Assembly: GCA_049325595.1 (NCBI GenBank)
Contig: JBMOLF010000001.1
Span: 64,001-128,000 of the forward strand
DNA length: 64,000 bases
Direction of reading: 5' to 3'
From: Candidatus Babelota bacterium
GTDB taxonomy: Bacteria; Babelota; Babeliae; Babelales; Vermiphilaceae
Within the stretch, counting starts at the first letter, position 1. Each line of letters opens with the position of its first letter. Shown piece after piece: positions 24,582 to 54,351 of this stretch. The position numbers and the translations under genes were made by a program. A model generated the notes under the pieces. It saw only the letters and a list, made by a program, of their open reading frames with translations, was not told the origin of the DNA and made no database searches.

Positions 24582-25754
24582 TTATAATACCCGAATTACT
24601 TCTTCAAAGGAAGTAAGTCCTTGCGAGAGTTTTGCAAAAGCATCTGCAGCCAACGTCTTCATTCCCTCTTCTTGTGCAATTTGTTCAATATCAGTTAATT
24701 TAGGTTGCTGCACAATAACTGAACGCAACTGATTGCTCATGATAAGCAATTGAAATATACCAATTCTACCCTTATAACCAGTGCCTAGGCATTCAGTACA
24801 ACCAACTGACTCATATAATTTCTCAATGGTGCAACTTAACTTAGTCATTATAGATTGTTGATCAGCAGTAGGTAACTTAACCACCTTACAAGCGTTACAT
24901 AATCGTCGTACCAATCGTTGCGCCAATACACCCGTAAGTGCGGCATTAATTAAGAATGGCTCAATACCCATATCAAGCAGTCGCATGATCACGCTTGGTG
25001 CATCACCCGCGTGAATAGTGCTTAACACAATGTGCCCCGTTAGTGCTGCTTCAATAGCAATATGTGCTGTTTGTTTATCGCGCATTTCTCCAACCATTAT
25101 AATGTCAGGATCTTGTCTAAGCAAAGCGCGCATACCTTTTTCAAAGGTAAATCCTGCTTCAGGATGTATTTGAGCTTGGCTAATGCCAGGAATATTGTAT
25201 TCAATAGGATCTTCAAGAGTGATTATATGTTGCCGTCGATTATTGAGCGCAGAAAGCGCTGCATACAGCGTTGTCGTTTTGCCCGATCCAGTAGGCCCTG
25301 CTGCTAAGAAAAAACCAAATGAACCGGAAAGCAGCTGTTGCGATTGAGCCAACATAGTTGGTTCAAATCCTAGTTGTGGCATTGATATTTTTAATCGTTC
25401 TTGATCAAGCAAACGCAATACAATTTTTTCGCCAAACGAACAAGGAAATGTAGAAAGTCGTACATCGATGATACGATTTTTAAAATTAAAACTAAATTTA
25501 CCATCTTGCGGAATCCGATGCTCAGCCACATTGATATGAGCAAGTATTTTAAGTCGAGCCATTACCGAAGATATGGTATCTATAATACAAGTCGCCGCAT
25601 CATATAAAACGCCATCAATACGCACTCTGATAACCAACCCTTCTGATGATGGTTCAAAATGAATATCAGATGCATTATAAAGCGTTGCCTGCTTTAATAC
25701 CGTATCAACCAAAGAAACGGCAGATAGCTGTTGATCAGCAGGTATACGAAGCAT
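24582..25754 (-). CDS. PilB/GspE-family secretion/pilus ATPase lacking the N1 domain
   Basis: ASDIHFEP, PQDG, GPTGSGKTTTLY, EDPIEY, LRQDPD...GEMRD, C..C zinc motif, GYKGRIG. Confidence 0.93.
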   Translation of the reverse strand: MLRIPADQQLSAVSLVDTVLKQATLYNASDIHFEPSSEGLVIRVRIDGVLYDAATCIIDTISSVMARLKILAHINVAEHRIPQDGKFSFNFKNRIIDVRLSTFPCSFGEKIVLRLLDQERLKISMPQLGFEPTMLAQSQQLLSGSFGFFLAAGPTGSGKTTTLYAALSALNNRRQHIITLEDPIEYNIPGISQAQIHPEAGFTFEKGMRALLRQDPDIIMVGEMRDKQTAHIAIEAALTGHIVLSTIHAGDAPSVIMRLLDMGIEPFLINAALTGVLAQRLVRRLCNACKVVKLPTADQQSIMTKLSCTIEKLYESVGCTECLGTGYKGRIGIFQLLIMSNQLRSVIVQQPKLTDIEQIAQEEGMKTLAADAFAKLSQGLTSFEEVIRVL

Positions 25755-41465: not shown

Positions 41466-41915
41466 CTAGCTTATTGATAGCGCATAAAGTTCAGCAAGCA
41501 GAGCTTCATCTAATGCTATACGTTCTTTAGTAAGACCTTGTTCATCCAATGTATTTTGACAAATATACACACCCAATAAGGTTTTAATCGCAGCAAATAA
41601 TGATAGCCCCAAAGAGTTATAGCGTGAATGTAAAACAAAATAAATATGTTTTAATCCAGCAACAGTTAGATAGCCACCAACTACGAGCTTGGCCACATAA
41701 GCTAATTTTTTATTTAAGCTTTTTTGTGAAAACCGCAAATCATTTTTTACTAGCTTGGTATAGAGAGAAAGATGATTTTTTATGTTTGGGATTTTTTTAA
41801 TTGATTGATGCTCTTTATATTGTGCTACAAGCCAATTATAGGTAAATTCTTTTGGTTCTTGCGCTTGTAAGCTTATACCTATTAATATGGCACAAAAAAA
41901 CGTAAATAATTTCAT
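41466..41915 (-). CDS. Hypothetical protein (signal peptide plus 2 TM)
   Basis: ORF architecture only. Confidence 0.65.
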   Translation of the reverse strand: MKLFTFFCAILIGISLQAQEPKEFTYNWLVAQYKEHQSIKKIPNIKNHLSLYTKLVKNDLRFSQKSLNKKLAYVAKLVVGGYLTVAGLKHIYFVLHSRYNSLGLSLFAAIKTLLGVYICQNTLDEQGLTKERIALDEALLAELYALSIS

Positions 41916-42893: not shown

Positions 42894-43232
42894 CTATGTA
42901 AAATTCTCATATTCTTTCCATTTTTCTTCTGGAATTAGCTTATTGTAAGATTGAACAACATTTAAAATTAATTCATCGACATCCTCAAGAATTTCAGCAA
43001 GTGTCATTAACAGGAATCTCATATAGATTAAAATTAAAATCGCTTCAAAGCCATGTGTGCCTGGCAATGAATTTAACCTTTTACTAAGCAAATCCAGATA
43101 ATCTTTTATAACTTCAAATTCTTGGAGACTTTTTTTTGTATTTTCTATCATCTCTATTTGAATTGATTTTATTGGATTTAATTTATAAAGGTGCTCAATT
43201 TTTTGTAAAATTATTTTAGTTTCTTCAATCAT
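42894..43232 (-). CDS. Hypothetical protein, possible immunity protein
   Basis: 112-aa helical ORF overlapping the upstream gene by 4 nt (ATGA). Confidence 0.55.
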   Translation of the reverse strand: MIEETKIILQKIEHLYKLNPIKSIQIEMIENTKKSLQEFEVIKDYLDLLSKRLNSLPGTHGFEAILILIYMRFLLMTLAEILEDVDELILNVVQSYNKLIPEEKWKEYENFT

Positions 43233-43807
43233 GACAATTTGCTCAAAGCTGCTTTAGTGTTTTTTATATCACATCCGCCGTCTACTTTTAGAATGATTTT
43301 TATTTCATTGTGTTTATTAAATACTTCAATTTTTCTTTCATCAATTTTTACATAATCATTTTTTCTCAAGTAAATGTTTACTGATTGTTTTAATTGTAAC
43401 TTTTTAGGATATTTACTTTTTATTAACAAATTATTTGATACAAGCTGATTAATAAATTGAGATGAAATAACATCACAAAATAGTAATTCTTTTATATCAT
43501 CTTTATGTTCAAAATTAACTTTTGGGAACTTAAGAACTATAGTATCAATGTAATTTGCGATATTACTTAATGTTGCTGCCATTGAACCATTAAGCGAATA
43601 AAATCTTACAAGTTCTAATATAATTGCCGGTAAATCATTTTTTATTAAGAATCGATCAATTTTTTCATGACTTTCTTTAATCGCATCTTCTAAAATGGAA
43701 ATTTCATTAGAATCAATTTCTTCAGTTATAGTTTTAGGAGAAATATTTAACTTAAATGTCTTGTTAAGTTGCTCGACTGCTCGAGATAAATTATTAATGA
43801 CGCACAT
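43229..43807 (-). CDS. Putative immunity protein of the orphan toxin tip
   Basis: Starts 4 nt after the toxin-like ORF; no signal peptide. Confidence 0.5.
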   Translation of the reverse strand: MCVINNLSRAVEQLNKTFKLNISPKTITEEIDSNEISILEDAIKESHEKIDRFLIKNDLPAIILELVRFYSLNGSMAATLSNIANYIDTIVLKFPKVNFEHKDDIKELLFCDVISSQFINQLVSNNLLIKSKYPKKLQLKQSVNIYLRKNDYVKIDERKIEVFNKHNEIKIILKVDGGCDIKNTKAALSKLS

Positions 43808-43811
43808 TAAA

Positions 43812-44087
43812 TCATACCTTTATTGTTCGGCCCATCGCATTTTTTGCTTTTATGTAATTAACTGTCCCATCCAGGTTTAAAACTGTTCTTGCAAAACCTC
43901 GCTTATCATAAACCTCAATGTGATCAAAATGAGTTTTATCGATATAATAATGAAAACCTTTTTTTAGATCAGGATGTCCGAAATCTTTTTTTATTTTATA
44001 TACGATTGATTCCTTAACAATAAGATGAGTTTTTTGGGAAAAGTCTTTTAACTTATTGCCGAAATCAGTTTTAAAAAGTTCCTTCAT
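43812..44087 (-). CDS. Orphan polymorphic-toxin C-terminal domain, colicin E3/CdiA-CT-like RNase
   Basis: YYIDKTHFDHIEVYDKRG...VLNLDG resembles the D-x2-H-x2/3-E-x-Y catalytic pattern of colicin-E3-type RNases; no N-terminal delivery region. Confidence 0.6.
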   Translation of the reverse strand: MKELFKTDFGNKLKDFSQKTHLIVKESIVYKIKKDFGHPDLKKGFHYYIDKTHFDHIEVYDKRGFARTVLNLDGTVNYIKAKNAMGRTIKV

Positions 44088-44680: not shown

Positions 44681-45436
44681 TTAGCTATATTTTTTCTGAA
44701 CACGTTCAGTTAAAGAACCTTTTTCACGAGCTTCTCGTTTTAGTTCAATTAATTCACATTCGTAATCTGAAAGGAATTCAGATTCTTTTAAAGGTTCAAT
44801 TGAAGAAGTATTAACTTTATCTGCAATCTTCGCTACATGAATTATCTTATCCGTTGTAGGAAGATTTTTAAAATCATTGATATATTGTGTAGTAGCATCA
44901 CGTGCAATATCAGCTGCTGACTTAGCGACTGTTATAATTGCAGGGGCTGCACCAGGAATCATTACTATGGCAACTCCTGTAGCGGCAACAGCGAACACAC
45001 AACCTGATATTATTAGTGCCTTTTGAGATGATGACAGTTCACCACTAGCTGTCTCTTTTTCTTTTATTGTTTTAATTACATCTTTATATTCTTGAATAAG
45101 TTCATTTGCTTTTTGCGCACCTCCAGCAAGTTTAAATGCATTCAAACATTCTGAACATTTACCTGGAATATCGTCAATTGAGTCCCTTTTAGCATGAGTT
45201 ACTAAACAATCAATAAAATTTTTTTCTAATTTGAGTAAGCGCGCTTGTTTTTTTAATTCTGCAATGTCATCTTTATTATTAACCTGGATGACTTTGCCTC
45301 CAATTGCAAAAACATTACAAGTTGTGGCAGCTAATTTTCCTATTGCCTCTACTAATTTGAGTTTGTCCCAAAGTGAATCATTGGGACTTGTAGTTTGATG
45401 AATAATTATAAAAATAGCTAAGAACGTCTTTTTCAT
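44681..45436 (-). CDS. Secreted C-x16-C family protein with TM segment
   Basis: CLVTHAKRDSIDDIPGKCSECLNAFKLAGG; hydrophobic ALIISGCVFAVAATGVAIVMIPG. Confidence 0.72.
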   Translation of the reverse strand: MKKTFLAIFIIIHQTTSPNDSLWDKLKLVEAIGKLAATTCNVFAIGGKVIQVNNKDDIAELKKQARLLKLEKNFIDCLVTHAKRDSIDDIPGKCSECLNAFKLAGGAQKANELIQEYKDVIKTIKEKETASGELSSSQKALIISGCVFAVAATGVAIVMIPGAAPAIITVAKSAADIARDATTQYINDFKNLPTTDKIIHVAKIADKVNTSSIEPLKESEFLSDYECELIELKREAREKGSLTERVQKKYS

Positions 45437-45972
45437 TTTGGTCTAACTAGATAAAAATCTGCACTTTTTTTCATACATTCTTTATTGCCAAGATAAAATG
45501 TAAATTGATCAATTAAATCTTTACAGGCTATGGGCATTTGAGTTGTTTCATCAAGCTCATCTGACTTATGCTGCAATAAACATTTATCCAGTAATACCTC
45601 AATTTCATATCCTCTAAGTCGTTTTTTTGCAAGCTCATTTCTTTCTTTTTGTTCTGGAGAGGGTCTTAACCAATTAATAAAACTTCCAATTGTAGCTCCA
45701 ACCACTGAAAAATTTCTACCAATATTTGAGATACTTTCAACTGTTCCTACAACACCTTTTTGAACTGCATTAGCTATTTTTTCATTGCTATCAGCCGTTC
45801 GTTCTTGTGGCGTTTTTTCTGAGTTAGTATCGTGTGCTTGATTTTTTTGATTTTCAACAATGTTTACATCATTCAAGTTAACTGTCTCAGAGGCTATTGA
45901 AATTTCATATGAAAGGCCGCTCAAAATAGCTATTAAAACCAGAAAAGTAATATTATTTTTCATCAAGAACAT
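45433..45972 (-). CDS. Secreted C-x18-C family protein
   Basis: Signal peptide; CLLQHKSDELDETTQMPIACKDLIDQFTFYLG. Confidence 0.72.
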   Translation of the reverse strand: MFLMKNNITFLVLIAILSGLSYEISIASETVNLNDVNIVENQKNQAHDTNSEKTPQERTADSNEKIANAVQKGVVGTVESISNIGRNFSVVGATIGSFINWLRPSPEQKERNELAKKRLRGYEIEVLLDKCLLQHKSDELDETTQMPIACKDLIDQFTFYLGNKECMKKSADFYLVRPK

Positions 45973-45980
45973 CCTTTATT

Positions 45981-46481
45981 TTATTGTTTATTAAATGATT
46001 TGATCTCATTAACACAACTATCCCACTTAGCTAAAAATATACTTAGCAAATTTAGTTCATATCCTGTTCTAATAAATTGATAAATTAATAACTGCTTATC
46101 AAAGTCATCTAAATATTTAACTTCAACAAATTCGGTTATTAGCCTACACGTAAAAATGCTTTGTTTTTCATTCACAAAATTATTCCATACTTTTTGAAGA
46201 CAATCTTCAAAATCTTCCGCATATTGATCTGCTAATTTACTATTTGTCTCTTTACCAATAGCTACTAAAATTCTTTTTATTAATTTATCCCGTAGAAATT
46301 CATATTCTTTTCTAGCATCAGAAACAACTTTCTTTTGCTCAGTTATTTTTTTTCCTAAAGCTGATAATTCTTGGTATTTCTGTATTAACTGATCTGATGC
46401 GTTATCATTGCCGGAAAGAATAGAAGAAAAAATTAAAGAATAGACGATAAACCATTTCTTCATAAGAAGTGATTCCCCCAA
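45981..46481 (-). CDS. Secreted helical protein
   Basis: MKKWFIVYSLIFSSILSG signal peptide; coiled coil; a C-x17-C spacing is present. Confidence 0.68.
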   Translation of the reverse strand: MGESLLMKKWFIVYSLIFSSILSGNDNASDQLIQKYQELSALGKKITEQKKVVSDARKEYEFLRDKLIKRILVAIGKETNSKLADQYAEDFEDCLQKVWNNFVNEKQSIFTCRLITEFVEVKYLDDFDKQLLIYQFIRTGYELNLLSIFLAKWDSCVNEIKSFNKQ

Positions 46482-46607: not shown

Positions 46608-47069
46608 TTATACAAAAACTGGCTTTAACCAGAGGGCTTGTAATTCGTTTTTTTCAATTACCGCAACAACATTAGTGATAAATTCAACCGCTTGATTATT
46701 CTTAGTTGGATCGCCTACGCAAACCCAGCCTGACTGCTGATTATAATAAACTGGCCAATGAATGTTGTTTAATCTATAAGAAAACCCTGGTTCATAACTT
46801 TTTAAAACCTTTAATTGTCCCACCTCATAATTTGGCACAGGCAAATCTGTTAAAATCCATTCGTGATTAGGGCAAAATCCATCAACTTGTACCACTAAAT
46901 TATTTACCACCGTTAAATTTAAATAGTTTATAACTAAAACAAAATCAATTCTTGCAGTAAATGGTCTAATATTAAAAGAAAATTCATCAAATAAGTAAAA
47001 TAATTTTCTTTGCTTTGCCTGTACAAATTCATCTTTAATTATGAATTCCATAAAATCTTTATTGATCAC
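46608..47069 (-). CDS. Hypothetical protein, possible immunity protein
   Basis: Beta-rich cytoplasmic ORF ending GWVCVGD...AVEF....VAV......ALWLKP; coupled to the upstream immunity array. Confidence 0.6.
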   Translation of the reverse strand: MINKDFMEFIIKDEFVQAKQRKLFYLFDEFSFNIRPFTARIDFVLVINYLNLTVVNNLVVQVDGFCPNHEWILTDLPVPNYEVGQLKVLKSYEPGFSYRLNNIHWPVYYNQQSGWVCVGDPTKNNQAVEFITNVVAVIEKNELQALWLKPVFV

Positions 47070-47869
47070 CTAGGATCCAGTGAAAGCTCAACAAAATCTA
47101 GTCCTTGGCATATTGAGGCTAATAAATCTAGATAGCGCCAATAATCAAAAACTACATCAGGACCACTAAATATACGCTCTTGCTTCCAAGGAAAAAAAGC
47201 ATTTGATATCTGCATGATTAATTCTTTATTCTCTGTATTAACGCAAATACCCATAAAAAAATAGGTGCCCTCACATTTGACATACAAATTATTACTCATC
47301 CGCTTTTCAATTTTTTCTATGATTTCTTGAACTGATAACAAGTAAGAATCACCGTACCATTCGTCATTTTGATATTCAAAAAAATAACATTCTTGAACTT
47401 GAGCGTTAGAAACAATACTGTGTACAGTTTTTGTTAAATCTGCGTAATTAAACTTAAGAGAAATAGAATGAGTATTATCAGAATCAGAATTAAAAAAACT
47501 TTTAGAACTAATGCGTTTAACAGGCCCTATATAAAACTGCTCAATTTCAAAGTTAATAGCTAATAGTAGCGCGTAAGAAAACATTAAATCTGTATTACAA
47601 ATAAAATTACTTGGAATAAAACTCAATACAAGATGTTGCTTAATCAACTGCATTGATAAATTAAAAAAAATATTGTTATGCGAAAGAATCAAAGTGGTAC
47701 TTAAATCAGTTTTTATGATTTGTATAAGTTCATTTTTCCCCAAAAATATTATTTCTTTGTTTTCGTTATAAAATAAAAATTGATTCAGTAATAAATTTGC
47801 ATGCAACCCATTTATAGATTCGCCAAAATCATCACGTACTTTTAATTTCATAAAAGCTGCATTAGTCAT
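47066..47869 (-). CDS. Putative immunity protein (two tandem repeat units)
   Basis: C-terminal DYWRYLDLLASICQGL matches the motif in the two neighbouring ORFs; N-terminal half is a degenerate copy. Confidence 0.6.
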   Translation of the reverse strand: MTNAAFMKLKVRDDFGESINGLHANLLLNQFLFYNENKEIIFLGKNELIQIIKTDLSTTLILSHNNIFFNLSMQLIKQHLVLSFIPSNFICNTDLMFSYALLLAINFEIEQFYIGPVKRISSKSFFNSDSDNTHSISLKFNYADLTKTVHSIVSNAQVQECYFFEYQNDEWYGDSYLLSVQEIIEKIEKRMSNNLYVKCEGTYFFMGICVNTENKELIMQISNAFFPWKQERIFSGPDVVFDYWRYLDLLASICQGLDFVELSLDPR

Positions 47870-47877
47870 AACAATCC

Positions 47878-48264
47878 TTATTCATATGTTGGTAATGAAT
47901 AATAGGGTTCTGTAAAAAATTCTTTTAAGAAAAAATTTTCGCATATAGCAAGTACACATTTTATGTATAAAGATAAATCATTTTGCTGTTCTTTAAACTT
48001 TGGAATAGCACTAATAATTGTTTTAGATGTTTGATATTCAATACTAATGTCTAGAAAAACTGTTTTATATTTAATTGCTAATTTTATTAATCTGTTACTA
48101 AAAAAAAGATCGCAAAATTCAGTTGCTGAAATCTGAACAGCATGGTTAAAGCTAGGATCATAAAAAGTTATTTTATTCATTAACATATTACCATACAAAG
48201 CTAGAGCAGCACTTTTTAAGTCATTAGCATCAACATAAGAATATATTTTATATTCGTTATTCAT
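47878..48264 (-). CDS. Putative immunity protein
   Basis: DLSLYIKCVLAICENF motif; paralog of 48261-48713. Confidence 0.6.
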   Translation of the reverse strand: MNNEYKIYSYVDANDLKSAALALYGNMLMNKITFYDPSFNHAVQISATEFCDLFFSNRLIKLAIKYKTVFLDISIEYQTSKTIISAIPKFKEQQNDLSLYIKCVLAICENFFLKEFFTEPYYSLPTYE

Positions 48265-48713
48265 GATATGCTCTCTTTCATAATTCCAATTACAGCAAAA
48301 TCATTACATAACTTAAGCATAATATTGATATAACGAGCAAAATCTAAACCATATGTGGGCAATCTTAAAAGAGGAATTAGACCGCTGTGAACAAACTCTA
48401 CTTCCCAATTAATAAAATCGCTAAAAGTTATCTCGCACAAACCAGCATCAGTTTTGTTGATCCAGAATTTAAAAGCTGTATCTTTATAGCGAGTAAAAAT
48501 TCCATAATATTCTATGTTACTATTTTCATCAAAGTTAATTATTCTTTCTGCAATCTCATCGGGACCAATTAATTTTGCAGCCTCATAACCTTCATTCCAA
48601 ATATAATTATAATAAATAAAGCCAATTTTTAATCCCGACTCTGAAATTTTCTTAATGTATTCCTGGTTATAAGAAAGATTAATCGTTGCACTAACTACAT
48701 GCAATAAACTCAT
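48261..48713 (-). CDS. Putative cognate immunity protein
   Basis: Starts 1 nt after the toxin stop; DFARYINIMLKLCNDF motif. Confidence 0.65.
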   Translation of the reverse strand: MSLLHVVSATINLSYNQEYIKKISESGLKIGFIYYNYIWNEGYEAAKLIGPDEIAERIINFDENSNIEYYGIFTRYKDTAFKFWINKTDAGLCEITFSDFINWEVEFVHSGLIPLLRLPTYGLDFARYINIMLKLCNDFAVIGIMKESIS

Positions 48714-48714
48714 T

Positions 48715-51700
48715 TTATCCCTCTATGAAAGATATACCATTGTCATAAAACCATTTTTGCCAATGTTCTGGAATAGGCTGCTTGGAATGCACCTCAAACG
48801 TCTTTCCATAAGCACTCGCATTTTTTTTCTGCTCAATAAATCTACTTTTCATAGTCTGCATTTTTTTTGCAGTTATATTTTGCCAGTATCTATCTTTGCA
48901 TTCTATTAACTTGGATAAAGTTTCTATATCAAATTCGCAAGTCTTATTCCCAGGAAGTTTTCTTCCAAAATAAACAACTTTTTCACCTTTTGATTCTAAG
49001 TTAAGAGCTTTTTCAAGTTCATAAATAGCACCCCTAGCGGTATTTAAATCATTACCATCTAAAGTCTTGGTTGCCGTCTTTAAAATTTTATATAGGGGTC
49101 CATCTTTATTCCAAAAACTATTCACCTCTTTAAATAACCTTGCCCCATCAGTTACCTTCTCAACATTAATTATTGATTCCATCTCGAAATTTGTTAAATA
49201 TTCTGAAACTGTTTTTAAATTTTTAAGAACAGCATTTATATGCTCTTCTAGCTGCTGATTAGTGACAACTAATTTACCTATGCTATTAGTTATCCTCTCA
49301 GCTTCCATGAACTGTGCTGGAATTTTACTTTCTACTGCAAATCCTTCAGCAGTTTGGGCTACCGCATTTACTTCTTTTAATTCGCGTAAAATATTTTCTG
49401 CTCGTGCAAGAGCCACTTGTATTGCAGGAGACGTTGCATTAAAAATTACTCCCAATCCCTGATCGATCAATAATCCTTCAGTAACCATTCTGCCTATTAA
49501 CTTTGCTTTTTCTTGTACGGGTAGTTCGGCTAATGCAATCATAGTTTTGGCAAGATTGATTCCATCTGTACCAACTCTATTGCAAAGACTATTTAATTTT
49601 GCAGCACATTTTTCTAAATCATCCTGCAACACTATGTCAGCCAAATCCAATAAAATATCTGCGGTATATACAAAAGGTTTTATAAATCCTTCAGTTGCAT
49701 TGAGCACAAACTGTTCTGGATTTTTTGCAATCTCGCTACCTAACTCTGAACCTTCTCTCACCGCCAACCACGCACATTCAGCCGCCAGTTTTTCATTGTT
49801 ATACAATTCAGTTATAAAAGTGCTTGGAATCTCAGATAAAAGACGATTAAGACAATCGTCAATAAGCACATTTTTATTGTGCACCTTTAAATCTTGGTAA
49901 GAAGCTTTTGATTCATAATCACTGAGTATTTGAATTGTTTGCTTTAATGTATGGGCAATTGATGAGCCTAATGGATTAATAACACGCGCTGTATCAGAAA
50001 AAACAATATTTTCAGTAACTACATAAAGCTTGTGGGCCACATTTTGCGCAGAATAAGCAACTTGATTAAAACAATGTTCTAATGAATGTCCTACATATTT
50101 TGATACTGTTTGGCCATATTCAAACAAAGACCAGCAAAAATCCGCTAAACTAAGTGCTTTAGAGGCATGCCCTTCTAAATTTACTTTTGCGGTATGCAAT
50201 AAATAATCAGCAATCTTACTATGCAGCGTTTTATCATAATCTGAGGCTGTCTTTTTAAATGATAATTCTGAAACCTTATTAAAGAGTTCAACAACCTCAG
50301 TATGTACAACTTGCTGAATTGCGTTACCAATACAATATTCTAAAACTCTTTGATTTTCTTTTTTTTGATTAAGCAACCATTTTGATTCTAAGCTAAGTTC
50401 ATAATTTTGTTCGTAAACAATAGAACCATGCTCTTTAATAAAATTTAATGCTTCTTCTCGGCGGGTTACAATAAACTCCGCTTGCTTGTTATTTTCAGAT
50501 AAGACAAGTGGTGCTACTTGTTCATACTTATCTAGTTGCGCCTTGCAGTCATTAAAATTTTGTTCTATTAAGTTAGTTATCTCATTTCTTAAAGAAGAAT
50601 CTATATGGTAATTATATTTTTTTTGATGCTTACTTAAATTAACAAATCTGGCGATAACCGGCGCATTATAGGAATAATCCCATTGAGGAATTTTATTATC
50701 AGATTCCTCTATTTTAGGTAATCCATTAATAGTCAATTCATTTTTCACCAAATTTTGTTCAGCAATTGTAGCCTGTGGCGATGAAGCTTGAGCAATCAAA
50801 CTATCTTGGTCATTAACTGCAATTGCCTGCTTAGCATTTAAGTTGTTCTCTGATGCTAAAGATTCAGTTTTATTTTTTTTCAACCCTGAAATTATACGAT
50901 TGTAAGGCAACAGACTTTCGCTATTTTTTAGATAGTCGGCAGCTTCATTTGATTTATTATTTTCTGCTAATTTTATGAGATGGCCAAGTTTTTGATTTAC
51001 CTCATTAGCTTGTACTTTTTTTAAAAAGGTTTTGGGAGTACAACCACGTTGTAAATTTTTTATACCATTTATAATCTGTTGCGAACTGCTTTTTGCACAC
51101 TGGTAGGCCTGTCCAATCCCACCTTCGGTTTTTATTGTATTTAAAATACTGGTACGTGAATTAATATCATTTACTATAGTCGATTTAAAATTATCAGTAT
51201 TGATCGATAACAAAGTGTCATACCACTCTGCTGGACTTCCTGAAATTGTCTTGCAAAAATCGGCACAAATTTGCGTTATTAATTGTCTGTCATTGCTAGA
51301 AAGATCTACCTTAATTGTTGCATCCGGAGCGCATGCGACTAAACTAAGCTTTTCTTTTATTGGTATCCATTGCTGATTATAGCTGGTATTATTTATGGAG
51401 CTATGCAATAACTCATGAATAGCTTTTACCGTTGAAAAACTATTATTACTTTCAAGCAAAGTTTTAAAGTTTGTTTTAATAGATTCAATAGCATTGAGTG
51501 TGGCAACATCACAAAGATTTTTTTGAATCGGAACATTAACTAATAATTGAACAGGATTATCAGATAAATAAGGATTTAATTCTGATGCGAGTTTCTTTTC
51601 AGAACTATAAAGATATAACGATTGTCCCTCATTCCAATGCTGATTAAGAATAGGATTATTTCGATAGAGTGGAATAACATCTAATGCTTTTCCATTACCC

Positions 51701-51936
51701 CACTCTATTTCATGATATTGCTTATATGCGCTATAGTTTTCCATACGATTAAAACTACTATTAAGAGATTTTGATCGTTGATCATAAACAATATCATTTT
51801 GTTTAGAGGCAATTTCTACATAGGGTTTGGAAGTAGTACATTTTTGTACATTACTAAAGTGCGCAATAGGCACTGGAACATCTTTATATGAACCCCAGAT
51901 TGGCAACGTTATGCATAATACTATTAAAAAAAACAT
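48715..51936 (-). CDS. Large secreted polymorphic toxin-like protein with C-terminal PD-(D/E)XK (REase-fold) nuclease
   Basis: Signal peptide; long helical body; C-terminal GAIYE...EFDIE....IECK...Q motif; followed by small coupled genes. Confidence 0.75.
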   Translation of the reverse strand: MFFLIVLCITLPIWGSYKDVPVPIAHFSNVQKCTTSKPYVEIASKQNDIVYDQRSKSLNSSFNRMENYSAYKQYHEIEWGNGKALDVIPLYRNNPILNQHWNEGQSLYLYSSEKKLASELNPYLSDNPVQLLVNVPIQKNLCDVATLNAIESIKTNFKTLLESNNSFSTVKAIHELLHSSINNTSYNQQWIPIKEKLSLVACAPDATIKVDLSSNDRQLITQICADFCKTISGSPAEWYDTLLSINTDNFKSTIVNDINSRTSILNTIKTEGGIGQAYQCAKSSSQQIINGIKNLQRGCTPKTFLKKVQANEVNQKLGHLIKLAENNKSNEAADYLKNSESLLPYNRIISGLKKNKTESLASENNLNAKQAIAVNDQDSLIAQASSPQATIAEQNLVKNELTINGLPKIEESDNKIPQWDYSYNAPVIARFVNLSKHQKKYNYHIDSSLRNEITNLIEQNFNDCKAQLDKYEQVAPLVLSENNKQAEFIVTRREEALNFIKEHGSIVYEQNYELSLESKWLLNQKKENQRVLEYCIGNAIQQVVHTEVVELFNKVSELSFKKTASDYDKTLHSKIADYLLHTAKVNLEGHASKALSLADFCWSLFEYGQTVSKYVGHSLEHCFNQVAYSAQNVAHKLYVVTENIVFSDTARVINPLGSSIAHTLKQTIQILSDYESKASYQDLKVHNKNVLIDDCLNRLLSEIPSTFITELYNNEKLAAECAWLAVREGSELGSEIAKNPEQFVLNATEGFIKPFVYTADILLDLADIVLQDDLEKCAAKLNSLCNRVGTDGINLAKTMIALAELPVQEKAKLIGRMVTEGLLIDQGLGVIFNATSPAIQVALARAENILRELKEVNAVAQTAEGFAVESKIPAQFMEAERITNSIGKLVVTNQQLEEHINAVLKNLKTVSEYLTNFEMESIINVEKVTDGARLFKEVNSFWNKDGPLYKILKTATKTLDGNDLNTARGAIYELEKALNLESKGEKVVYFGRKLPGNKTCEFDIETLSKLIECKDRYWQNITAKKMQTMKSRFIEQKKNASAYGKTFEVHSKQPIPEHWQKWFYDNGISFIEG

Positions 51937-51954
51937 AGCTAACTTATTCCACTC

Positions 51955-53280
51955 TTAAATTTTCTCTTTTTTTAAATCCTGTAAATAATTTATGGTCTTT
52001 GTATCGCTCTTAATCAATGATTTATTGTCCTGCCAAGCCAATACTTTGTCTTTCAATTTTTCATCACTGTATATCTGCAAATTATTATGAAAATTCGATT
52101 GTTCGAGCTGATGATTAAAGCTTTGTTGTTGCAAATTTAATTGAGTATCAAACTGATTTGATTGAGTTCTTAACTGTATATAAAAGTTGCGTTGATTTAA
52201 ATATAAGTTAAGAATCGATATTACTGTTGGTAATCCCTGAGTAATAAATATTCTCATACCTGGTTTTATTTTTTGGTATAAGTTACCAAACCAGTCATTC
52301 CATGTGTTCCAATTTTTGATGAGACGCTCAAAATCTTGCTCTTGAATAACAATATCTGTTTTGTTTCTAATCTTGGCGTTACGTGCAGCTTGCTTAACTA
52401 AACGATCTAGCATTCTTAAAGGTTTACCCTTAGTTCGGTGGGCTATGTAATCTATATATTTATCATTGATTTTATACGGAATACTAAGAGCAGCTAGGTG
52501 ATACCTTATCGCCTCTTTACGCGAATTATAACTTGACTGACCTAATGTGATAATATCAAAATCAATAAAACGTGTTTTTATAGGTGATGGCAAATCTTGA
52601 AAAGCTTTGTTAGAAGTACCAATAAAAAACACATTTCCATATTTATTACAATCATCAAGCATTGTCCAAAATTTAGCAACCGCAGCTTTATCTTGTTTAT
52701 TATCAGCTTCAGCCAAATCGGTAATCTCAGTAAATTCATCCAAAATCAAAACACAATCTGTTTGAGTCTTAAACAAAGTATGAAATAAATGGTTTATATT
52801 TTCAGCTCCAGAATGTTTGTACTTATCAAGTAAATCAGGAGCTCTTTCTAGTCTATACCTTCTTTTTGTTACTTTTGCTATAGCCATAGCCAAGCTAGTC
52901 TTACCCATTCCAGGTTCTCCTAAAAGCAACATTCTATCGGGCAATAAATCTCTGGAAATTGGATCTATTAAACTATCAACAATGTCCTCAACCTCAGCAG
53001 GAGCCGAATCTATTAATTTTTTAGCAAAATCATCACTTATAGAGTGAATATCATCATTGAATATATTATTTTGGTTAAATTTTAAAGAATATGTCTTAGT
53101 GCTCTCTTCAGTATCTTCATCAATATAAATAATTGGTTTTTTTGTAATAACCCTGTCAACAAGATCATTTACTCGTATAGATGTGCGCGTATTGTTGATA
53201 GTTTCCTGGCAATAGAGGTTACTTGATAAGCTTATGCTGATAAATATATTAAAAAGAATTACACTTATATTATTCTTCAT
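51955..53280 (-). CDS. AAA+ ATPase (classic clade) with signal peptide-like N-terminus and C-terminal hydrophobic helix
   Basis: GEPGMGKT, LILDE, IGTSN, LPSPIKTRF. Confidence 0.88.
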   Translation of the reverse strand: MKNNISVILFNIFISISLSSNLYCQETINNTRTSIRVNDLVDRVITKKPIIYIDEDTEESTKTYSLKFNQNNIFNDDIHSISDDFAKKLIDSAPAEVEDIVDSLIDPISRDLLPDRMLLLGEPGMGKTSLAMAIAKVTKRRYRLERAPDLLDKYKHSGAENINHLFHTLFKTQTDCVLILDEFTEITDLAEADNKQDKAAVAKFWTMLDDCNKYGNVFFIGTSNKAFQDLPSPIKTRFIDFDIITLGQSSYNSRKEAIRYHLAALSIPYKINDKYIDYIAHRTKGKPLRMLDRLVKQAARNAKIRNKTDIVIQEQDFERLIKNWNTWNDWFGNLYQKIKPGMRIFITQGLPTVISILNLYLNQRNFYIQLRTQSNQFDTQLNLQQQSFNHQLEQSNFHNNLQIYSDEKLKDKVLAWQDNKSLIKSDTKTINYLQDLKKEKI

Positions 53281-53301
53281 GTTGCAGCACCCTTTGATGT
53301 C

Positions 53302-54351
53302 TCATGCGTGATCATTCATCCAGCGCTCATATCTTCTATCGGCTTTAATGGTGTAGTACAAATTAATCATTGAAAATAAGATGGGTGGACCATATATAAG
53401 CACATCTCTTATAGTAAATTTATTTTTATTAATAAATTCTTTTAACGAAAATGATTTTTTACTTTCATGCAAGGCACGTAAAAAGTCATTTTTTGTAATT
53501 ATGCTTCGTGGATTTTTATAATGCGCATACTGCGCCGCTCGTATAATTACGGATTCAATTTCACGAATAGACATTCCCGCAGTTTTTGTTGCAAGCCACC
53601 GACATTCCGATCGCGTCCAATCTTTAGTAATTTGACCTAAATAAAATGCGATTATTTCTACCCTATTGTCATAGTCAGGTAGATTTATGGGAACAATAAA
53701 ACCTTCAAATCTACTTTTTAAAGGTCCAGGAATATCGTTAAGATCATTAGCAGTTGCAATAAAAAAGATATTTGGATTTTGAGCGCATCGATCGAGCAAC
53801 AACCACAGCGCCTCAAGTAACCCTGGATCAATATCCTGTCCCTCTTTTTTATTTTTGAAAAATACATTGATTTCATCGATAATAATGGTCATTTTTTGAT
53901 TTGATTCTAAAATTTCACCAAATATTTTTAATAAATTTTGAGGACCGGAATGTTTATATTCATTGGCAACAAAAGGTGCTTCTATCACTATATAATCTGC
54001 CTCAAGCATATGTCCTATCGCTTTTGCTAATGTTGTTTTCCCACATCCAGGAGGACCAACCAATAAAAGCCTTTTAGGTTTTGCCTTTGCATATATTAAT
54101 GGATAACGAAGATTATAAATAATTTGTTTAAGTCGTTCAGACATTTGCTTTTGAACTAGAGAAAGCAACAAACTATCTTCTTGCTGATCACTACAATACG
54201 CACTATCCTCAATAGGAATTTTTTTGATATTTTTATCGACTAATTCAGCTACAGATTTTGGTTTTTCTTCTGAATTAGGTACAATATTATTAAAATAGAA
54301 AGACAACAGAATAATTATTAAGTAGCAAACATTAAAATGGACTTTTCTCAT
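53302..54351 (-). CDS. AAA+ ATPase (classic clade) with signal peptide-like N-terminus and C-terminal hydrophobic helix
   Basis: GPPGCGKT, IIIDE, IATAN, IPGPLKSRF, LPD...R..I, T.GMS.REIE. Confidence 0.9.
   Translation of the reverse strand: MRKVHFNVCYLIIILLSFYFNNIVPNSEEKPKSVAELVDKNIKKIPIEDSAYCSDQQEDSLLLSLVQKQMSERLKQIIYNLRYPLIYAKAKPKRLLLVGPPGCGKTTLAKAIGHMLEADYIVIEAPFVANEYKHSGPQNLLKIFGEILESNQKMTIIIDEINVFFKNKKEGQDIDPGLLEALWLLLDRCAQNPNIFFIATANDLNDIPGPLKSRFEGFIVPINLPDYDNRVEIIAFYLGQITKDWTRSECRWLATKTAGMSIREIESVIIRAAQYAHYKNPRSIITKNDFLRALHESKKSFSLKEFINKNKFTIRDVLIYGPPILFSMINLYYTIKADRRYERWMNDHA

Follow-up and report, generated by a model that had tools for sequence, protein, structure and literature searches.

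The AAA+ ATPases named as partners of polymorphic toxins, in the excerpted text of the survey by Zhang et al. (2012; PMC3482391), are ClpV of type VI secretion and a Cdc48-like ATPase of the Photorhabdus virulence cassettes (PVC), both of which belong to phage-tail-like injection systems. In eukaryotes, excerpts from two accounts of Plasmodium present PTEX HSP101 as a secreted AAA+ ATPase that drives the export of parasite proteins across a host-facing membrane (PMC8693896, PMC6550532). Closer to the organism considered here, the excerpted description of Babela massiliensis includes a Babela-specific AAA ATPase and permuted Ulp1-like peptidase family with atypical signal peptides and predicted secretion, and gives type II as the only secretion system found in the one Dependentiae isolate that it analyses (PMC4378268). 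Here we describe a locus that displays individual features of each of these systems. It lies in a 64,000-nucleotide stretch of a Candidatus Babelota bacterium (assembly GCA_049325595.1, contig JBMOLF010000001.1, positions 64,001 to 128,000; hereafter the window, to whose numbering all unlabelled coordinates refer), which forms part of a 1.29-Mb genome of about 35% G+C. Two tandem AAA+ genes, AAA-2 (53302..54351) and AAA-1 (51955..53280), are followed on the same minus strand by the gene for a large, signal-peptide-bearing, polymorphic-type toxin (48715..51936). With a rough probability of 0.4, we read AAA-2 and AAA-1 as the toxin-dedicated AAA+ motor of a nuclease-toxin cassette, extracytoplasmic, membrane-tethered and fed by host ATP.

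AAA-2 (349 aa) is made up of a leader, a predicted-disordered linker of about 35 aa, one classic-fold AAA+ module and a C-terminal hydrophobic helix 14 aa from its end, and AAA-1 (441 aa) has a leader, linker, AAA+ module and hydrophobic helix followed by a 79-aa Q/N-rich tail. An earlier note, made from the letters of this stretch, had claimed a tandem of paralogous AAA+ ATPases with intact catalytic motifs between 51955 and 54351, and this description holds. Both proteins match PF00004 (E values of 1.2e-20 for AAA-1 and 1.6e-21 for AAA-2), and they are diverged paralogs with 28% identity over 247 aa (E 9e-31). Walker A (GPPGCGKT and GEPGMGKT), the Walker B DE, the sensor-1 Asn and one arginine of the second region of homology (SRH; KSRF and KTRF) are found in both, and a 29-row family alignment is invariant at G99, G102, G104, K105, D159, E160, T200, N202 and R214 (AAA-2 numbering). 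The GxxGxGK[ST] and hhhhDE patterns of the classic AAA+ clade are therefore present in both proteins, as in all 29 rows. The second SRH arginine of p97 (RFGRFD) is replaced in the family by E, G or N, so that R214 is the only invariant one; a K or R two residues before R214 is common but does not align to p97's second arginine.

The fold also points to the classic clade. The AlphaFold2 (AF2) model of AAA-2, with a mean predicted local distance difference test (pLDDT) score of 79, shows a helix at residues 2-21, a low-confidence segment at 22-58, the AAA module at 59-300 and a helix at 311-348, and its best Foldseek matches are Rpt, p97, Vps4, PAN and FtsH, while the nearest solved sequences to the pair are p97/Cdc48, Afg2, Rix7, PAN and NSF. 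The classic clade is recognised by a short extra helix that separates strand 2 from helix 2; in the model, a short helix at residues 125-129 follows the strand at 119-124 and precedes pore loop 1 at 132-136. The clade is further defined by a lid that has the Ala of G-A-D and no sensor-2 arginine. R263, which is invariant in 29/29 rows and aligns with the Ala of the p97 D2 'SGAD', stands at what is presumably the sensor-2 position, and the family is therefore best called classic-like. Alignment to p97 D1/D2 and within the family places YKHSG of AAA-2 (53944..53958, minus strand), correctly singled out in the earlier note as unusual and common to the pair, at pore loop 1, where the aromatic residue is kept and is followed by K and H instead of hydrophobic-Gly; the family consensus is Y-K-N-S-G.

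The two proteins also share the 14-residue motif V.[ED]LVD..I.K.PI, at aa 34-47 of AAA-2 (54211..54252) and aa 37-50 of AAA-1 (53131..53172), both on the minus strand and located by motif scan and by reading the DNA. Already noticed in the earlier note, it proves private to the pair in its exact form among 2174 ORFs (open reading frames) from this genome and the retrieved loci, where 20 shuffles gave no match, and a looser version is confined to the AAA-2 orthologs P0001 and P0002. Such agreement is odd at 28% identity and suggests, as far as sequence can tell, a shared docking partner or gene conversion. In the phylogeny, the family forms a clade of its own, separate from the PAN, Cdc48-like, FtsH and fungal reference rows (99 by the Shimodaira-Hasegawa-like approximate likelihood ratio test, SH-aLRT), and the names on the homologs come only from Candidatus Dependentiae/Babeliales sources.

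Each ATPase begins with a signal-peptide-like leader of about 24 residues. In AAA-2 (54280..54351, minus strand), MRK precedes an uncharged hydrophobic run and an acidic flank (h-region 4-24, n-flank +2, c-flank -2); in AAA-1 (53209..53280, minus strand), a 14-residue h-region at residues 5-18 follows an n-flank of +1. The basic-then-hydrophobic leaders described in the earlier note are real and widely kept: by strict criteria, 68 of 78 non-identical relatives (E<1e-35, one of them FtsH) carry one, and most of the ten leader-negative members show it downstream of an over-extended ORF start, only one being clearly without. The h-regions of the family have a median of 15 residues (range 8-21), the flanks average +1.9 on the n-side and -1.1 on the c-side, and the n-flank exceeds the c-flank in 60/68, a geometry and charge bias that fit Sec-type signal peptides. 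AAA-2 itself is without a clean A-x-A site, which many relatives have in A-x-A-type contexts. The 78% ortholog P0002 of AAA-2 retains a hydrophobic leader of different sequence, which indicates that the region is translated. Since the leaders are conserved and signal-peptide-like, the true starts do not lie downstream of them, as would have been fatal to the interpretation of the earlier note. The 97% ortholog P0001 has a public gene call that starts 20 codons later, within the leader, so automatic annotation can hide such signal peptides. Housekeeping ORFs of the same genome (Lon, ClpB, RuvB, RarA-like) have no such leaders.

The same features bear on whether the pair could instead be cytoplasmic, held by an uncleaved N-terminal helix in the manner of FtsH or Msp1 and feeding or extracting proteins on the cytoplasmic side of the inner membrane. 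Such an arrangement would have ATP at hand without any special assumption, FtsH and Msp1 are indeed membrane-anchored classic AAA+ proteins, and AF2 draws the leader as a helix. We nevertheless regard it as very improbable, because the h-regions are short, A-x-A-type cleavage contexts occur in many members, and the flanks, basic before and acidic after the leader in most of the family, would by the positive-inside rule orient the passenger outwards. Furthermore, a toxin with its own Sec leader needs no cytoplasmic pusher.

The C-terminal hydrophobic helices lie at 53350..53406 in AAA-2 (VLIYGPPILFSMINLYYTI, followed by KADRRYERW; Kyte-Doolittle 19-mer mean 1.36, moment 0.22) and at 52195..52251 in AAA-1 (IFITQGLPTVISILNLYLN; mean 1.27), both on the minus strand. 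The helix block at 311-348 of the AAA-2 model has pLDDT values of 84-94. The earlier note had taken these segments for membrane-type helices sharing G.P....[IM].NLY; the motif does lie within them (AAA-2 aa 316-334, AAA-1 aa 344-362), but their hydrophobicity falls short of membrane grade. Among 77 family tails, 25 are of transmembrane (TM) grade, 33 marginal (including both window proteins) and 19 show none; of the 58 that are hydrophobic, 38 sit no more than 30 aa from the C terminus. Several TM-grade tails end in a short basic stretch such as KAGKKS, which, judged on sequence, is the pattern of a stop-transfer anchor. By default, therefore, a leader, an AAA module and a C-terminal anchor with a short basic end would be read as a type I membrane protein with its ring facing the periplasm. 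Tail-anchored proteins of the eukaryotic type carry one hydrophobic segment within some 30 residues of the C terminus and no N-terminal signal; the position alone fits AAA-2, while both proteins have an N-terminal signal and AAA-1 extends 79 aa past its helix. An amphipathic, pore-forming role of the helices was considered and rejected on a mean hydrophobic moment of 0.18.

The third gene encodes a 1073-aa protein. Its central region (aa 498-841) is found in 32/261 genomes and matches large leader-bearing proteins that adjoin AAA genes in the sister genome as well as in further genera (G246, G232, L063, L064), while its C-terminal 170 aa match instead a 701-aa protein of a different genus (G193; 39% identity), at whose locus the first downstream small gene is matched as well. 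A conserved N-terminal/central part and C-terminal toxin domains exchanged between loci are what define a polymorphic toxin, and this protein and its relatives show that pattern. AF2 and Foldseek assign the end of the protein (aa 921-1073; 48718..49176, minus strand) to the PD-(D/E)xK nuclease fold. A word-based homolog search with this C terminus returned only 3 proteins and an exhaustive search was needed, which matched 274 representative clusters at E<=0.001; among the 150 proteins listed out of these clusters (77-1625 aa), the match in nearly all reaches the C terminus or stops a few residues short of it. E84, D114, K125 and a W are invariant in the domain, with E123 and the C of E-C-K nearly so, and the AF2 model (pLDDT 92.5) has the alpha-beta-beta-beta-alpha-beta core with the E...D...(D/E)xK residues of the family. 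Foldseek relates it to Card1, Can2, Cdn1, AF1548, the arenavirus cap-snatching endonuclease and CdiA-CT (4g6v). On this modelled structure, the C-terminal domain is a predicted PD-(D/E)xK nuclease, and the neighbour that the earlier note had called a toxin may keep that name.

Family profiles added little. Pfam and NCBIfam gave nothing usable for the window toxin and its small neighbours, Pfam named only ankyrin repeats, in one of 25 proteins with the same C-terminal module, and a protein atlas gave only sub-threshold leads (MafB, EndoU, PT-TG). An alignment of 28 large toxins had 14% mean column identity and no invariant column, and no shared N-terminal tag was seen on the AAA-adjacent toxins, VP(V/I)AHFSN after the leader being common only to the two toxins of this genome. 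The protein P0215 (1351 aa) joins ankyrin repeats to the same PD-(D/E)xK module, a fusion which hints that some versions of the nuclease may be aimed at host targets.

Downstream of the toxin, a leaderless 150-aa ORF (48261..48713) abuts its stop and is followed by ORFs of 128 aa (47878..48264), 267 aa in two units (47066..47869) and 153 aa (46608..47069), all on the minus strand, the last with no family found. A match to the first accompanies the same toxin C-terminal domain in a different genus (L039 4572-5036, E 1e-14). The second is related to the third (E 2e-5) and to L039 4150 (E 7e-4), and the third resembles the second in its N half and L039 4572 in its C half (E 1.3e-6), so that these three are paralogs of one immunity-like family and putative immunity genes. 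A complex prediction of the toxin C-terminal domain with the first small protein scored 0.21 against a mark of 0.32 and is uninformative either way. Elsewhere in the genome, at C12:1640-8953, seven paralogous immunity-like ORFs of 144-149 aa come after an EndoU-ended toxin of 1167 aa, together with EndoU fragments interrupted by stops, a textbook orphan-cassette array.

The gene order on the minus strand is thus AAA-2, AAA-1, toxin and four small ORFs down to 46608, with gaps of 21 nt between AAA-2 and AAA-1 and 18 nt between AAA-1 and the toxin start, and overlaps of 4 nt at two downstream junctions. This spacing fits a seven-gene operon, 46608-54351, with the AAA pair at its head. Consensus scans for promoters and terminators, which are weak evidence, found one terminator-like hairpin (46632-46619) in the operon, inside the 3' end of its last ORF, and placed the top-scoring promoter-like site in the region (11/12) just past it at 46544-46516.

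Evidence for a link between the two ATPases and the toxin is that the arrangement recurs among these bacteria, which parasitise protists. In a first sample of 15 loci, chosen solely for their tandem AAA genes, 13 have a gene of the toxin families (three BLAST families of large leader-bearing proteins) beside an AAA gene, and in 10 of these it lies directly downstream in the same orientation; next come small ORFs without a leader, and some loci carry repeated cassettes of toxin fragment and small gene. A second sample took the best family match in each of 40 further genomes. One of these 40 (L080, E 2e-44) proved to be FtsH, so the overall count of genomes with an AAA-family match at E<=1e-30, no more than 127/261 with six candidates scored per genome, is an upper bound. 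Here a leader-bearing protein of at least 550 aa lies directly downstream of 22/50 AAA genes, or 21 once an AAA-AAA case is dropped, against 24/537 other genes (odds ratio 16.8, p 4e-14, calculated on the raw 22/50 and inflated by kinship among the genomes). A single-linkage BLAST cluster that includes the window toxin takes in 28/33 of the AAA-adjacent large proteins, and in the 29 large proteins scanned Pfam found, above cut-off, C-terminal EndoU in 5, Ntox21 in 1 and Ntox35 in 1, two being Sel1 or ankyrin proteins and not toxins. The link is seen with separate AAA lineages, namely the window pair, a different tandem pair termed A/B, the G193 pair outside the 51-row family clade and an FtsH-like, leader-bearing AAA (L075).

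This enrichment has to be set against the simplest alternative, that there is no functional link and that abundant, fast-evolving, lineage-specific genes merely share variable islands, the AAA proteins serving an unrelated task such as envelope protein quality control. Leader-bearing AAA ORFs number some 11 in this genome alone and large leader-bearing ORFs 59, many toxins have no AAA neighbour, about half of the sampled AAA loci have no direct downstream match by the script rule, and synteny is rearranged even within the genus. Chance sharing of islands is nonetheless unlikely in our view, as it does not account for direct downstream placement at 21/50 as opposed to 24/537, for gaps of only 18-21 nt at this locus, or for the recurrence of the arrangement across AAA lineages that are separate in the phylogeny and with toxins of different C termini.

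The A/B pair may bear on ring composition. Its two types form 9-row clades (99 SH-aLRT each) with one member each from the same nine genomes, the A type having a hydrophobic tail and the upstream B type none; co-inheritance with a tail on one partner only is the pattern expected of a hetero-oligomer, and in one genome the A and B modules are joined in a single ORF. Fusion variants noted in the family comprise two AAA modules in one 705-aa ORF (L042 6605-8722, G105), a leader with ankyrin repeats and AAA (L050 6363-9047, G111) and a 1506-aa protein with an uncharacterised 900-aa N terminus (L067 6845-11365, G024). Within the present genome, the leader-bearing AAA ORFs include a second subfamily whose pore loops are canonical. 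Beyond the four family members there are about seven further ones, three of which stand in tandem and have canonical pore loops and R-x-G-R motifs; those outside the window lie at C12:12799-16050, C9:20029-21072, C10:22242-23195, C15:99487-100143 and C15:204786-207572. Leader-bearing AAA+ proteins are therefore a genome-wide theme. Ten small leader-bearing proteins (175-219 aa) of one family flank AAA paralogs on three contigs (C11:276-830, C12:8981-12845, C23:17855-19498), with a weak member in the window at 41466-41915; the one relative outside this genome adjoins an AAA gene in L077, and the family may be a further component of the system.

We tentatively propose the following mechanism, in which the sequence features, their conservation in the family, the layout of the operon, the enrichment beside toxins, the toxin fold and the translocase genes are observed, and in which we infer export, topology, ATP source, ring composition and action on the toxin. 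Both ATPases and the toxin would each be made with a Sec signal peptide and exit the cytoplasm. The ATPases would be held by the C-terminal hydrophobic helix, with the AAA+ ring towards the periplasm or the cell exterior. This ring, possibly a mixed AAA-1/AAA-2 hexamer, could then grip the large toxin via the conserved pore-loop tyrosine and unfold or thread it, either to hand it on over another membrane or to maintain its competence for export, while the leaderless small downstream proteins would neutralise toxin remaining in or entering the bacterial cytoplasm. A periplasmic AAA ring would normally be absurd, because the periplasm has no ATP and machines there are powered from the cytoplasmic side or by the proton gradient. 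The genome carries two ATP/ADP translocase (TLC) genes, however, and host ATP imported by such translocases must cross the periplasm when the bacterium is inside its host cell, so that the ATP for the ring may be supplied by the host; relatives are described, in excerpts on Chromulinavorax, as dependent on host ATP (PMC6561590).

Several observations weigh against a toxin-dedicated, membrane-tethered motor. As regards the link, 19/39 family loci have no large leader-bearing protein directly downstream by the script rule, although inspection by eye shows a large neighbouring protein in 9/40 loci, either in a different orientation or with its leader unflagged. Near the paralog on C11 of this genome there is no toxin. 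Eight toxin-centred loci show the toxin superfamily in toxin-immunity arrays that lack a family AAA, none of their 17 toxins of at least 450 aa standing beside one, and G121, from a family (f17) neither of whose two genomes yields an AAA-family match at E<=1e-30, has seven toxin-family copies. AAA-toxin fusions were not found, the long AAA-containing ORFs matching FtsH-type AAA regions only, and kinship lends the adjacency statistics some of their strength. As regards export and tethering, leader-like N-termini are very common (688/1322 ORFs of the genome, 52%, by a liberal heuristic), 19/77 family members have no hydrophobic tail, and the helices of the window pair are marginal, below a typical membrane span and, on a translocon scale, at about +6 kcal/mol, so that they may not stop transfer. 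The ankyrin-AAA fusion in L050 would suit action on host proteins, and secretins and type II secretion system/type IV pilus (T2SS/T4P) ATPases could export folded proteins without an unfoldase. The toxins themselves offer one difference: median length is 954 aa for AAA-adjacent toxins (n=28) and 634 aa for those in toxin-only arrays (n=17), which suggests that the former may carry an extra N-terminal part, the two samples being chosen differently.

Part of this evidence favours the main rival, doubtful but to be taken seriously, that AAA-2 and AAA-1 are host-directed effectors. After Sec export they would be released by type II secretion or vesicles, tail-anchor in the membranes of host organelles or vacuoles and there use host ATP to remodel or pull out host proteins, the toxin being a co-secreted effector or a mere island neighbour. 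Moderately hydrophobic, basic-flanked C-terminal segments are typical of eukaryotic tail anchors, and many of the 38/58 tails within 30 aa of the C terminus are of this kind, to which the marginal hydrophobicity of the window pair's tails, the L050 fusion of signal peptide, ankyrin and AAA, and the secretins and T2SS-type ATPases of the genome may be added. Leader-bearing, eukaryote-type Dependentiae proteins are read in the literature as host-secreted; the excerpted Babela account of AAA and Ulp1-like proteins agrees with this (PMC4378268), as do the excerpts in which Chromulinavorax has signal peptides on 44% of its coding sequences and vesicles were seen (PMC6561590). Effectors acting in the host would not account for AAA genes of several lineages lying so tightly, repeatedly and co-directionally just upstream of toxin-immunity cassettes, nor for the co-inherited A/B pair with a tail on one partner, and the TM-grade anchors (25/77) should be retained in the inner membrane of the bacterium once Sec has translocated the proteins. 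The toxin-dedicated motor and the host effector differ mainly in site of action, and either would allow for a functional tie to the toxin. The earlier note had offered much the same choice, between an inner-membrane motor and an effector in host or target cytosol, possibly a hetero-hexamer threading the adjacent toxin; the leaders, the toxin neighbour, the enrichment and an A/B couple fitting hetero-oligomers speak for it in part, and the link between AAA and toxin is obligatory in neither direction.

What is new here is a putatively exported AAA+ accessory in a polymorphic toxin cassette, the cassette type itself being already known. A further step, on which we are more hesitant, would be that energy-parasitic Babeliales have evolved what ordinary bacteria could not operate, AAA+ unfoldase rings on the outer face of the inner membrane that run on the host ATP flooding the periplasm during infection, as an undescribed, dedicated translocation motor for Sec-exported polymorphic toxins and a bacterial counterpart of PTEX. 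If so, the 11 or so leader-bearing AAA genes of this 1.29-Mb genome would amount to an extracytoplasmic, ATP-driven layer of proteostasis and export. Signal-peptide-bearing AAA+ proteins in importers of host ATP would either challenge the rule of an ATP-free periplasm or define a new class of ATP-driven effectors. The operon tie to polymorphic nuclease toxins gives the AAA family a concrete, testable substrate; the link would add a mode of trafficking or processing to polymorphic toxin biology and gives a starting point for learning how the large proteins of Dependentiae reach their targets.

Three small ORFs at 44681-46481, with a leader flagged in two, are syntenic with the sister genome (L031 12065-13919), where they stand on the opposite side of the AAA pair, indicating that the module has been rearranged within the genus. 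At 42894-44087 (minus strand), a 91-aa ORF with no Pfam match is followed by ORFs of 192 aa and 112 aa, which, judged by eye, could be another orphan toxin-end/immunity remnant. A T2SS/T4P-type ATPase gene lies at 24591-25721 (minus strand; PF00437, E 3e-125), and contig C9 of the same genome has two secretin genes.

Searches of the literature, subscription papers and supplements excluded, turned up no description of leader-bearing AAA+ genes beside polymorphic toxins and no occurrence of the phrases 'periplasmic AAA' or 'extracytoplasmic AAA'. Membrane-anchored single-ring AAA+ extractases and translocases include Msp1/ATAD1, Bcs1, Pex1/Pex6 and the chloroplast Ycf2-FtsHi. Like Msp1-type extractases, the window pair has one AAA+ module per chain and a putative membrane tether, and Pex1/6 and Ycf2-FtsHi form rings of paralogous subunits; the anchor of Msp1 and Bcs1, however, is N-terminal and their ring faces the cytosol or matrix, and to our knowledge none of these proteins has a cleavable bacterial signal peptide. 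The best matches in sequence and fold are the classic-clade proteins p97/Cdc48 D1, Rpt/PAN, Vps4/CdvC and FtsH, with which the family shares Walker A/B, the sensor-1 Asn, an SRH arginine, the aromatic residue of pore loop 1 and, in the model, the short helix at aa 125-129. In contrast to them, it has a predicted Sec-type signal peptide and no N-domain, a single invariant SRH arginine (R214), an invariant R263, a Y-K-N/H-S-G pore loop and a C-terminal hydrophobic helix.

The Babela AAA-Ulp1 family, compared here by its excerpted description only, comes from the same phylum and likewise pairs an AAA ATPase with a signal peptide and predicted secretion; the window proteins differ from it in having no peptidase, a C-terminal hydrophobic helix and a place beside toxins. 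HSP101, which works with EXP2 and PTEX150, offers a functional analogy, as far as the excerpted accounts describe it, for an extracytoplasmic unfoldase of an intracellular parasite; as a eukaryotic, ClpB-type double-ring protein it is homologous in the AAA+ fold only, and the comparison is by analogy alone. The ClpV and Cdc48-like partners of polymorphic toxins named in the excerpted survey differ from the AAA+ proteins here, which carry predicted signal peptides themselves, and no tail-like genes were noticed near the locus among the neighbours scanned. The leader-bearing large protein with its swappable C-terminal nuclease domain, the downstream immunity-like genes, the orphan cassettes in relatives and the accessory gene directly upstream are all features that the present locus and its relatives have in common with polymorphic toxin systems.

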